A stretch of DNA of 43,624 bases from the NCBI GenBank assembly GCA_903894145.1, contig CAITPB010000255.1:1-43624 (forward strand), in the 5' to 3' direction. This document shows, piece by piece, positions 511 through 42,885 of the stretch (positions are counted from its first letter, which is position 1; each line of letters opens with the position of its first letter). This DNA comes from Candidatus Firestoneibacteriota bacterium (GTDB taxonomy: Bacteria; Oederibacteriota; D2-FULL-39-29; CAIOVX01). Below the pieces are notes generated by a model. It did not search any database. It saw only the letters and a program-made list of their open reading frames with translations, and was not told the DNA's origin. Both the position numbers and the translations under genes were made by a program.

Positions 511-767
511 AAAATTCGAAAAAGCAAACTCGAAATTCGAATTACTCTGCGTCTTGTGATCAAGAACGCCAAGAATAAGCACCAGATCTCAAATCGCAAG
601 CACCAAATAAGCATCAAAAAAACAAAACAGCAAGAAGCAAAAAACAAAACTACCCCGAAACGAGCCAAAACTTTCTTCTTTTATGTTTATGTGTTTATTT
701 GTGATTTGGAGCTTGGGATTTGGTGCTTCCTCCCATTTCGAATTTCATGTTTCAGACTTCGGATTTG
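511..767. repeat. Two nested inverted-repeat hairpin cassettes with 7-nt periodic arms
   Basis: Outer arms ~511-543 (aaattcg aaaaagc aaactcg aaattcg) and ~735-767 (revcomp aaatccg aagtctg aaacatg aaattcg). Inner arms ~578-616 (aagcacc agatctc aaatcgc aagcacc aaataa) and ~695-728 (revcomp aagcacc aaatccc aagctcc aaatcac aaataa). Confidence 0.85.
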
Positions 768-1851: not shown

Positions 1852-2365
1852 AGTTCAGTAATTTTACCGTCCCGGTTGTTGCCGCGAAAACCAGTGTATA
1901 AACTTCCCCTTTTGCTCCTGAGAGCACCACGAAACCGCTTTCAGAACTTCCATCCGGGTAGAAAGTTATGTAATCCGGCGCACCTGATGCGGCTGCCCCG
2001 GATAAGGATCTCGGCGTATTCAAGCTCTTAATGGCTACTTCGCTGATTAGAACTATCTGCTTTACATCAGCCGTCACTTCGTACTGCATAGTAGCCGGGT
2101 TCATTCCGGATAGCGTTACGGTGTTTGCTCCCGGGTCAAAAGTCACGCGGTAATTTACCCCTTTTGCTTCTGCCAAGTTTCTAGCCAGGTCAGACATCCC
2201 TGCAGATTTCACAGCCTCTAAATAGGCCTTTTTCGAGGCATAGAAATTCCCGAACCAGATTGCGAGCACGGCCGTCATCGATATTATTATCGATACGACG
2301 ATGAGCATTTCAACAAGCGTGAATCCGGGGTTATTTGTTCTCTGACCAGTTCGTAATATCCGCAT
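1841..2365 (-). CDS. gspH: Type II secretion minor pseudopilin GspH/FimT-like
   Basis: PG|FTLVEMLIV leader; 'ITFYPDGSS' motif near the C-terminus; directly follows gspG. Confidence 0.8.
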   Translation of the reverse strand: MRILRTGQRTNNPGFTLVEMLIVVSIIISMTAVLAIWFGNFYASKKAYLEAVKSAGMSDLARNLAEAKGVNYRVTFDPGANTVTLSGMNPATMQYEVTADVKQIVLISEVAIKSLNTPRSLSGAAASGAPDYITFYPDGSSESGFVVLSGAKGEVYTLVFAATTGTVKLLNYEK

Positions 2366-2768
2366 CAGGCCCCTGCCCGCCTTCCTTTCCGTCTCTGCCG
2401 TAAGAGCAGAGATCGTATCCGTTGGGATTATTCAGGCCGGGACACATATAAATGTATGTACCGTTCCAGGGATCGTTTCCGACCCGTTTCTTTATATATG
2501 GACCTTTCCAGCTGGTTGGAACCGGCTGGCTGGTCGGGGCGTTATAGAGCGCGTCCAGTCCTTGCTCGGTCGTCGGGTAAAAACCGTTATCCGCCTCATA
2601 GGCGTCGAGGGCCAGCTCCATCGTGGCAATATCAGACTTTGCCGCCGCTATCCTCGCGTCTTCGGTCCTGCCGAAGAACCGAGGGGCAAGGGTTGAGGCG
2701 AGGATGACGATAATTACGACGACTGTAAGGATTTCGATTAAGGTAAATCCTTTTTCCTTCTTAAACAT
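2331..2768 (-). CDS. gspG: Type II secretion major pseudopilin GspG
   Basis: KG|FTLIEIL leader; YPTTEQGLDAL, WKGPY, DPWNGTYIY, and the SYGRDGKEGGQGPDADITNW Ca-binding tail; GGAGG RBS. Confidence 0.97.
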   Translation of the reverse strand: MFKKEKGFTLIEILTVVVIIVILASTLAPRFFGRTEDARIAAAKSDIATMELALDAYEADNGFYPTTEQGLDALYNAPTSQPVPTSWKGPYIKKRVGNDPWNGTYIYMCPGLNNPNGYDLCSYGRDGKEGGQGPDADITNWSENK

Positions 2769-2784
2769 ATGGCCTCCAAATTTA

Positions 2785-2880
2785 CGTTTATAACGTTTGT
2801 AACGTTCTTAACGTTTATAACGAATAGCACAAATGCTTTACGTTACAAACCTTACAAACGTTATGAACGTTATAAACCGC
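2785..2880. repeat. Hairpin cassette with 9-nt periodic arms (copy B1)
   Basis: Left arm cgtttataa cgtttgtaa cgttcttaa cgtttataa cg (2785-2822); 18-nt spacer; right arm cg ttacaaacc ttacaaacg ttatgaacg ttataaacc gc (2841-2880). Confidence 0.9.
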
Positions 2881-3989
2881 TATTTAACAATCGAACTCAA
2901 TCCCAATATCGGAAGCAGCACCGCGATTACTACAAAACCCACGCCCACCGCCATGACCAGTATCATGATAGGCTCCAGAAGAATTACAATCCTTCGCGTG
3001 GTCATCTCCATCTCTTTCTCGTAGTAAGCGGCTACCCTGCTCATAACATCCTCAAGTTTACCGGTTTCTTCCCCGACCTGAATCATCTGGATGATAGTTT
3101 TGGGAAAGAACGGTACATCTTTCAAGGCCAGGGAGAGACTGGACCCCCTCTCCACGCTTTTTGCCGCCGCCTTTATGTGCTTGGAAAGGACCGCGTTGCC
3201 GATAGTCTCGCCGGTAATTGAGAGCGCCTGCAGCATAGGGACCCCGCTTCCGGCCATTATGCTCAGAGAAAAGGAAAACCTCGTCAACAGGGCCTTCCGC
3301 ATTGCCGTGCCGAAAAGCGGAACATAGAGTACTGCCGTGTCAATTACCTCTCTTCCATTTTCCGTGCGTGAGTAGCGCGAATAAAATATTGCTCCGGCCG
3401 CAACTGCCGCAAGAATCACCCACCAGTAACCCGTAAAGAATGAACTGATGCCCATAAGTATCACGGTCGGAAGAGGGAGCGCCTGTTTGAATTCCGCGAA
3501 GAGCGTAACAAAAGTTGGAAGTATAACGGCCAGAATGAAGACCAGCACGGAAATTCCGACAAATAGCATTATCATCGGGTAGATCATCATCGTGGATATC
3601 TTAGACTGAAAATCCTCTTCCCATTCAAGCTGGTCGGCATACTTGGCCAGCGCCTTCTCGAACATACCGGTGACTTCTCCAACTTTGATGAGCCCTACCA
3701 TAAGCGGCGGAAAGGTTTGCGGATATTCGGACAAACATTCCGAGAAAGGAGTCCCGCCCTTTATCTTGTCTTTTATCTTTCCAACTATGCCTTTAAGCCT
3801 GGACTCTTCCATGCTATCCCAGAGTGTATTCATCGCCTGGTATAGCGGAACCCCTGCTCCGGACATAGTTGCCAGCTGCCGCGTGAAGGCGCTCAATTGC
3901 CCCACGCTCACCTTAGGAACATACAGGGAATTAAGCCGTTTGACGGCGTCTTTTATGGTAGCAAGCGCGCTCTCAGCCAACGTCTTCAT
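2880..3989 (-). CDS. gspF: Type II secretion inner-membrane platform protein GspF/PilC
   Basis: FTRQLATMSGAGVPL, VGEVTG, MIYP, MIQVGEETGKL, LLEP. The start may be TTG at 3980, which is better spaced from AGGAGG. Confidence 0.95.
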   Translation of the reverse strand: MKTLAESALATIKDAVKRLNSLYVPKVSVGQLSAFTRQLATMSGAGVPLYQAMNTLWDSMEESRLKGIVGKIKDKIKGGTPFSECLSEYPQTFPPLMVGLIKVGEVTGMFEKALAKYADQLEWEEDFQSKISTMMIYPMIMLFVGISVLVFILAVILPTFVTLFAEFKQALPLPTVILMGISSFFTGYWWVILAAVAAGAIFYSRYSRTENGREVIDTAVLYVPLFGTAMRKALLTRFSFSLSIMAGSGVPMLQALSITGETIGNAVLSKHIKAAAKSVERGSSLSLALKDVPFFPKTIIQMIQVGEETGKLEDVMSRVAAYYEKEMEMTTRRIVILLEPIMILVMAVGVGFVVIAVLLPILGLSSIVK

Positions 3990-5632: not shown

Positions 5633-5755
5633 GCGGTTTATAACGTTACTAACGTTTGTAACGTTAATAACGAAAACAAAAGGCACCACTACCCCACAAC
5701 ATCTGAATACCAAACACTGCTTTACGTTATAAACGTTAAGAACGTTAAAAACGTT
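5633..5755. repeat. Hairpin cassette with 9-nt periodic arms (copy B2)
   Basis: Left arm gc ggtttataa cgttactaa cgtttgtaa cgttaataa cg (5633-5672); right arm cg ttataaacg ttaagaacg ttaaaaacg tt (5725-5755). Confidence 0.9.
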
Positions 5756-5763
5756 ATTTTGCT

Positions 5764-5829
5764 ATGCCGGACGAAGTACGGCATTATCAATATCCTACCT
5801 CACAAAACAGGACACACGAAGTGTGGCCT
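5764..5829. repeat. Two 21-nt REP-like palindromes sharing the core ACGAAGT
   Basis: ATGCCG-G-AC-GAA-GT-A-CGGCAT (5764-5784) and AGG-A-CACAC-GAA-GTGTG-G-CCT (5809-5829). Confidence 0.55.
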
Positions 5830-42839: not shown

Positions 42840-42885
42840 AGTTTATAAGGTTCGTAAAGTTCATAAGGTTTGTAAGGTAAGAGCA
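42840..42885. repeat. Solo 9-nt periodic arm (copy B3)
   Basis: agtttataa ggttcgtaa agttcataa ggtttgtaa ggtaagagca matches the arm of B1/B2 including the inner (c/g)gtaa..agca junction; no partner arm nearby. Confidence 0.75.

Follow-up and report, generated by a model that had tools for sequence, protein, structure and literature searches.

A tandem-nonamer hairpin cassette between gspF and gspG of Candidatus Firestonebacteria, probably a gene-less miniature of a cassette that carries an S23p gene

The S23p-type intervening sequences (IVSs) of Coxiella burnetii, Leptospira, Xanthomonas and Brucella have inverted terminal sequences that form a long stem (28 bp in Coxiella), carry an S23p (PF05635) open reading frame (ORF) in sense orientation in the loop, and ride on the transcript of their host (PMC4990558). 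In the same source, RNase III is described to excise these IVSs from 23S rRNA, the excision to leave two flanking rRNA fragments at different levels, a variable number of heptameric repeats to lie on the 5' side of the Coxiella IVS, and the S23p of Xanthomonas is cited as a homopentamer (PMC4990558). The insert between gspF and gspG that is analyzed here shares the inverted ends and the long stem, its full-length relatives share the sense-oriented S23p ORF in the loop, and we propose that it likewise rides on the host transcript. Unlike the 23S rRNA IVSs, which lie in helix 45 or 25, the gspF-gspG copy sits in an operon spacer of an mRNA; it also differs in that it has no ORF, that its arms consist of tandem 9-nt units, and that its family numbers about 190 arrays per genome. 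The insert is probably a variant of the known S23p/IVS-like cassettes. Our search of the literature linking S23p or the intervening-sequence protein to tandem repeats gave the Coxiella IVS paper (PMC4990558) as the only relevant one, and the search for repeats of Firestonebacteria gave nothing relevant.

Three groups of intergenic repeats are also comparable. The STRR sequences of heterocystous cyanobacteria are intergenic short tandem units with a hairpin in an operon spacer (hupS-hupL), as here, for which a role in transcript stability or translational coupling was proposed (PMC2670836); their period is 7, whereas the period in Candidatus Firestonebacteria is 9 and a link to S23p was found. 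The TAACTGA heptamers of Beggiatoaceae, Cyanobacteria and Bacteroidetes form about 170 sets in a genome, each with 2-6 tandem copies; they too are intergenic, near gene boundaries and suspected of a post-transcriptional role, and are described as direct repeats that immediately precede start codons, a single indirect repeat having been reported (PMC4679880). In contrast, inverted pairs dominate here, and it is to the upstream stop codon that the arrays are anchored. Stabilisation of the upstream mRNA is the role classically ascribed to REPs. The REP/BIME/REPIN elements of proteobacteria likewise occur in high copy number outside genes, as inverted doublets able to fold within mRNA (PMC3116915); unlike them, the present repeats have no RAYT association, their arms are tandem arrays and not a single imperfect palindrome, and their middles are unique.

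The stretch of DNA that was analyzed (hereafter, the window) is 43,624 nt long and comes from a Candidatus Firestoneibacteriota bacterium (contig CAITPB010000255.1). All of gspE, gspF and gspG are on its minus strand, and the features around the insert are as follows.

5487-3973, minus strand: gspE (ORF list; Pfam)
2880..3989, minus strand: gspF (T2SS protein F), stop TAG at 2882-2880 (Pfam T2SSF, E 1.3e-62)
2842..2877, minus strand: 5' arm in the transcript, nonamers GTTTATAAC GTTCATAAC GTTTGTAAG GTTTGTAAC, F-type on the minus strand
2822..2841, minus strand: 20-nt middle, GTAAAGCA TTTG TGCTATTC, with its own 4-bp apical stem
2786..2821, minus strand: 3' arm in the transcript, inverted nonamers GTTATAAAC GTTAAGAAC GTTACAAAC GTTATAAAC
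2766..2777, minus strand: RBS (GGAGG, 2777-2773) and start codon (ATG, 2768-2766) of gspG
2331..2768, minus strand: gspG, major pseudopilin (Pfam T2SSG, E 3.9e-36; N_methyl)

Read on the transcribed strand from the gspF TAG to the gspG GGAGG, the spacer consists of CG, four nonamers, the middle GTAAAGCATTTGTGCTATTC, four inverted nonamers and GTAAATTT; on the plus strand, the units GTTTATAAC/GTTTGTAAC/GTTCTTAAC/GTTTATAAC occupy 2786-2821 and four inverted units occupy 2842-2877. The unit consensus is GTTYRTAAS (9 nt), present in 4 + 4 inverted copies, and the middle opens with GTAA, the inner-boundary motif of the nonamer family. Tandem Repeats Finder gave a period of 9 with 4.3 and 4.0 copies in the two arms, and an inverted-repeat finder gave arms of 44 nt that are 82% complementary and 4 nt apart. 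The minus-strand RNA (2895-2755) folds at -44.2 kcal/mol (mean of shuffles -24.9, sd 2.98, z -6.48), none of 200 shuffles folded as well, and the predicted stem is about 36 bp long with 30/36 Watson-Crick pairs. Thus, the hairpin of four units, a spacer and four inverted units that an earlier note on this DNA had described is borne out by the sequence, the repeat finders and the fold. The note had written the unit as CGTTYNTAA and the spacer as 18 nt; these are the same units, with the register one base off, and the corrected reading is GTTYRTAAS with a 20-nt middle. Its description of a cassette that fills the space from the gspF stop to the gspG RBS was accurate, the distance being 2 nt to the TAG at one end and 8 nt to the GGAGG at the other. 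A search of the window at the Rfam gathering thresholds gave no match, and a promoter scan found no sigma-70-like promoter in the cassette.

The closeness of the stem base to both the TAG and the GGAGG is what would be expected if the hairpin placed the gspF stop beside the gspG RBS, so that translation stayed coupled and the insert was translationally neutral; the same idea was proposed, without a test, for the STRR hairpin at hupS-hupL (PMC2670836). We consider this explanation very unlikely: the terminating ribosome would need to melt the base of the stem, lone arrays that have no partner are equally well anchored to stop codons, and the spacers of cassette-free relatives, described below, also speak against it.

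The genome to which the window belongs (G000; 1.8755 Mb, 283 contigs, 49% G+C, 87% complete) was scanned as a whole for arrays, defined as at least three units of GTTYRTAAV. This genome-wide motif search, which the earlier note had proposed, gave 189 nonamer arrays, against 2 in the shuffled genome; the gspF-gspG insert belongs to a high-copy nonamer repeat family and is not a one-off. The modal array has four units (111/189), a further 22/189 have five, and the units number 737 in total. Among neighbouring array pairs within 600 nt, 34 are FR, 6 RF, 9 FF and 8 RR, and 30 FR pairs are non-overlapping. The arms have a polarity, AAAA-units-GTAA...TTAC-units-TTTT, with AAAA before the outer end in 102/189 arrays and GTAA[A/G/T] after the inner end in 115/189. 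Two sub-families, with an AACGTT core and an AAGGTT/AAAGTT core, respectively, were distinguished, and both arms of one cassette share the sub-family in 28/30 cases (Fisher p 1.8e-5). The middles are 14-291 nt long, and 20 of the 26 that could be searched have no second copy in G000. Comparison of the arrays with DNA contigs from four runs gave only cross-mapping from further copies of the repeat, with the contigs breaking where an array lies.

Further members and related elements in the window are as follows.

5636..5752, minus strand: second nonamer cassette, between the BNR/sortilin-like ORF and gspE, with a middle of 54 nt
5745..5826, minus strand: two-hairpin module of about 72 nt, between nonamer units in the upstream arm of the second cassette
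42841..42876, plus strand: nonamer array of four units with no partner, after which come GTAAG and a hairpin resembling a terminator
560..730, unstranded: heptamer-armed inverted cassette, with units of the AAGCACC/AAATCGC type versus the TTTGTGA/TTTGGTG type

Heptamer cassettes of the same build exist, as at about 560-730 of the window, and also genome-wide, in agreement with the common architecture that had been claimed. Note that the ORF upstream of gspE (8073-5854, minus strand) is, by Pfam, a BNR/Asp-box, sortilin-Vps10-like protein and not the secretin GspD. The module of about 72 nt had 40 BLAST matches in G000; its stems covary, its loops read TNC, and its first hairpin, taken with the T-rich tail, resembles a terminator by score. 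Every copy is placed within an F-oriented nonamer array, with a unit on either side, and some copies are in tandem; for 35 copies an upstream gene was called, and in 29 of them this gene shares the strand of the copy. Elhai et al. in 2008 reportedly described small dispersed repeats inserted in heptamer arrays, which the 72-nt module in a nonamer array would parallel. At the second cassette, the module is present in the window and in the congener L007 and absent in the congeners L005 and L006, and the middle of this cassette (window 5672-5725) is replaced in L006 and L007 by a sequence that itself holds a heptamer-armed inverted cassette, that is, a nested one. In G000, heptamer arrays of AATTAGC/AATCAGY lie directly upstream of tRNA genes (C23:17110, C65:2875, C70:326) and elsewhere are often followed by a CCGCGGAGCGG-type hairpin; further array families of 7- and 8-nt units are GACAGAG, AAATTCG, GGAGGGTT and GATGCGCA.

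Hairpin-forming inverted doublets that occur intergenically in many copies, in a genome with one RAYT-like gene, could point to a REP/REPIN-type element that a RAYT (Y1) transposase mobilises, or else to a MITE of the classical kind. The RAYT-like Y1 transposase gene (G000 C71:3926-4474; L010:1423-1974) is a single copy with its own flanking hairpin. However, that hairpin differs from the nonamer arrays and occurs only at that locus, and RAYT-like homologues are found in 7/11 array-bearing and 14/30 array-free relatives. As for a MITE, the 20 unique middles among the 26 searched speak against it, a target-site duplication was not seen by eye in the listed flanks, and the search for autonomous candidates found no F-gene-R element with a transposase. 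This explanation is largely refuted, and we assign it hardly any probability. A phage origin was also considered and rejected: 15 viral contigs match three perfect units, but as monotonous iteron-like runs lacking the F-middle-R build.

Among the 99 genomes of the phylum, the three-unit pattern was found in 11, all in the sister families f1 and f3, namely in the window's genome, in the other 4/4 genomes of its family and in 6/6 of one sister family. The pattern was found in none of the other 88 genomes, and a control with the reversed pattern gave 0 matches in all 99.

The position of the arrays was evaluated with crude gene calls, in which the longest ORFs of 80 aa or more were taken and 91% of G000 was covered. 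By these calls, only 10/189 nonamer arrays lie inside an ORF, and 66 more are either at the end of a contig or run over the edge of an ORF. The earlier note had asked whether copies are enriched between co-directional genes; they are not, since an array was found in 57/794 co-directional intergenic regions versus 15/108 convergent and 6/120 divergent ones. In 50 co-directional elements, the first unit follows the upstream stop codon at a median distance of 8.5 nt (IQR 5.5-32.5), and the median distance from the array to the next start codon is 46 nt; 30 of the 39 co-directional elements with both distances start within 15 nt of the upstream stop. The filling of the space between stop and RBS is a trait of the whole nonamer family, not of the gspF-gspG copy alone. 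In-frame back-up stop codons were considered as a function of the arrays and rejected: in a hand tally of 37 elements within 15 nt of a stop, the frame classes were about 16/16/5, with no single frame. Lone arrays between co-directional genes are in F sense in 20 cases and in R sense in 5 (p 0.004); the F arm faces the upstream stop codon, and the polarity is fixed. With regard to avoidance of Rho as an idea for this bias, arrays of the G/A type (14:3) and of the C type (6:2) are both biased, though in small numbers.

A family of this sort could be neutral or selfish filler, a member of which would have no effect on the operon and would lie between stop and RBS because only that stretch tolerates an insertion. 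We regard this as unlikely, though far from negligible. The many copies, the restriction to one clade and the intergenic position are consistent with it, whereas the bias of 20 to 5 in the orientation of lone arrays is not; comparison of orthologous sites bears on it in both directions. The gspF-gspG spacers of the relatives are as follows.

Own genus (4/4): nonamer cassette
G004 (L008): no array; spacer of 83 nt with its own RBS
G005 (array-free genome): no array; spacer of about 70 nt with its own RBS
G009: lone four-unit nonamer array, starting 6 nt past the stop
G007: decamer cassette with 16 units from 5 nt past the stop, then a middle and roughly 7 units in inverted orientation
G006: inverted cassette with heptamer arms

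In its own genus, the nonamer cassette is shared with the congeners L005, L006 and L007, and nonamer, decamer or heptamer arrays or cassettes occupy the junction in 4/6 genera. The cassette architecture at gspF-gspG persists across genera while the repeat unit changes. For neutral filler, it counts that a related genus does without the cassette at this junction, and against it, that the junction holds other arrays or cassettes in three further genomes. Because the cassette-free spacers of G004/L008 and G005 carry their own RBS, tight coupling of gspF and gspG through the stop and the RBS is not ancestral; given the 83-nt spacer of G004, the near-neutrality that the earlier note had inferred from the fold as its main idea need not be invoked.

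Between L007 and the window, the arms of the gspF-gspG cassette are identical at 72/72 positions, including all 24 that are variable in the family, whereas third codon positions are identical at only 189/369 (about 51%) in gspF, 73/145 in gspG and 266/504 in gspE. Such identity of the arms, with synonymous sites about 50% identical, argues against neutral filler. The middle differs in L007, where extra sequence is present. The mismatches of the stem are themselves conserved in L007, which would also fit binding of a protein. In G002, a 400-kb portion was examined, and 18 of its 28 array clusters have a colinear site in G000. At these sites the arrays are in the same places with units gained or lost, entire arms switch sub-family, and the middles are mostly unalignable; at one site, a nonamer array in one species corresponds to an octamer array in the other. 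The free change of unit number and sub-family at sites orthologous between G000 and G002 is in favor of neutral filler.

PF05635 was searched in the whole of G000 with E up to 0.01. Three intact genes were found, of which one is flanked by octamer arrays in inverted orientation and a second by heptamer arrays arranged in this way, and no PF05635 remnant was detected at this threshold in any cassette middle of G000. In five relatives, PF05635 had 26 matches. S23p is enclosed by nonamer arms in three of the relatives (G002:C42, G007:C132 and G006:C22); at G002:C42, seven nonamer units start 5 nt past the upstream TAA, and the downstream arm contains the 72-nt module. Decamer arms (GTCCGTAAAG) bracket S23p in G007:C76 and G006:C34. 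In L062, of the same genus as the window, seven GTTYRTAAC units precede S23p and nonamer units follow it, so that the arms of the gspF-gspG copy are of the same unit family as those of an S23p-bearing copy in the lineage. In the test of flanking regions, 16/24 S23p genes have inverted repeats at z of at least 4; the 8/24 below z 4 include L062, whose nonamer arms are visible by eye. Nonamer-armed S23p genes were not found in G000, G001 and G003 (87% complete and in 280-300 contigs each), and the G000 site orthologous to the nonamer-armed copy of G002 falls at a contig end. Of the 11 array-bearing genomes, 6 contain homologues of the nonamer-clade S23p at 50% identity or more, and homologues with 48-57% identity occur also in three genomes that have no nonamer arrays.

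In the S23p protein tree (n=23), the clades follow the arm family (unit of 7, 8, 9 or 10 nt): the nonamer and decamer genes group together (support 87/94), two heptamer families and the octamer family form clades with supports of 100/99, 100/100 and 100/98, and one further clade has no detectable arms. As judged from these sequences, the match of clade and arms shows a stable linkage and not proof of recognition, because related S23p genes share arm labels by descent. At one site, the arms of orthologous S23p genes are of the GATGCGCA type in one pair of genomes and of the GGAAGGTT type in another pair. Two other loci are recorded here. A 632-nt S23p cassette is present in G003 (L074:1344-1975) and absent in its congener G000 (C48:7535-7598), with flanks 98% identical, the empty site being a 64-nt spacer with a terminator-like hairpin. 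A repeat of about 116 nt (L078:1386-1512) interrupts an S23p pseudogene in G002; it has 15 matches in G000 (8 of full length) and none in the window, and its copies are 100% identical between G002 and G000.

No S23p ORF is present between the arms of the gspF-gspG copy, the middle of which is only 20 nt long. Since nonamer-armed S23p copies occur in G002, G006 and G007, we filed this copy as a gene-less derivative and not as a full member of the S23p cassettes. The insert is probably a gene-less miniature of a hairpin-ended cassette that, when complete, carries a gene for the S23p/23S_rRNA_IVP four-helix-bundle protein.

Pairing of the arms was evaluated in the G000 cassettes. Where the units vary, the match of an arm with its own partner is 3.8/9 and that with the partners of other cassettes 3.87/9 (p 0.61); overall, 756/972 arm positions are Watson-Crick paired. 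In 14 co-directional cassettes read on the sense strand, the transition mismatches comprise 31 G.U and 35 A.C pairs (p 0.71). Neither the comparison of own- and cross-arm complementarity nor the G.U bias gave a sign of selection for RNA pairing in these cassettes. A pairing covariation no greater than the family consensus gives is a point for neutral filler, and its absence agrees equally with the explanation that the units are DNA or RNA sites for an oligomeric protein, for example a pentameric S23p of the matching clade, and that the hairpin is a by-product of symmetry. The latter explanation, which we consider improbable, accommodates the exact conservation at gspF-gspG including the mismatches, the correspondence of S23p clades with arm units, and the modal arm of four units (111/189, and 22 with five) beside the S23p homopentamer cited for Xanthomonas (PMC4990558). 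It is at variance with the variable period (7, 8, 9 and 10 nt), with the exchange of unit families at one site, and with the two arm families that flank orthologous S23p genes at one site.

The reading that we prefer is stated here in full, and we hold it to be moderately probable: the insert would be a gene-less copy of the S23p cassette, the co-transcribed stem of which is cut by RNase III, separating the gspEF and gspG messages. The cassette would be transcribed together with gspE, gspF and gspG, and the transcript would fold into the stem of about 36 bp. RNase III would then cut this stem in the way it cuts the stems of S23p-type IVSs in 23S rRNA, and the gspEF and gspG messages thus separated could differ in stability. 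Because RNase III excises S23p-type IVSs, the likeliest effect of the cassette would by analogy be a cut between gspF and gspG. The alternative of the earlier note, an RNase III-type site, gains indirect support from this excision together with the nonamer arms around S23p genes of relatives. Genes for RNase III and Rho are encoded in G000, whereas a search for RNase E/G in the assembly, 87% complete, found none. We further put forward, tentatively and as a rather doubtful extension, that an S23p paralogue is a sequence-specific reader of its own arms, a pentamer torus on four to five units of RNA or single-stranded DNA, and that the gene-less hairpins form a trans-controlled network, which S23p would also spread. 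If so, the S23p clades would diversify in step with their units of 7, 8, 9 or 10 nt, and at least 100 gene-less hairpins per genome would punctuate operons right after stop codons.

Intergenic short tandem repeats (STRR, TAACTGA and others) and the S23p intervening-sequence protein are two old unexplained puzzles. In these bacteria, repeat arms and the S23p gene form one cassette in which the S23p clades follow the arm unit, the gene-less copies far outnumber the gene-bearing ones, and a cassette of this kind is retained, with a changing unit, at one operon junction in several genera. The repeat cassettes also account for the fragmentation of these assemblies into hundreds of contigs. The finding leads to a testable hypothesis, in which RNase III may process operon mRNAs at the stems and S23p may bind its own repeats.
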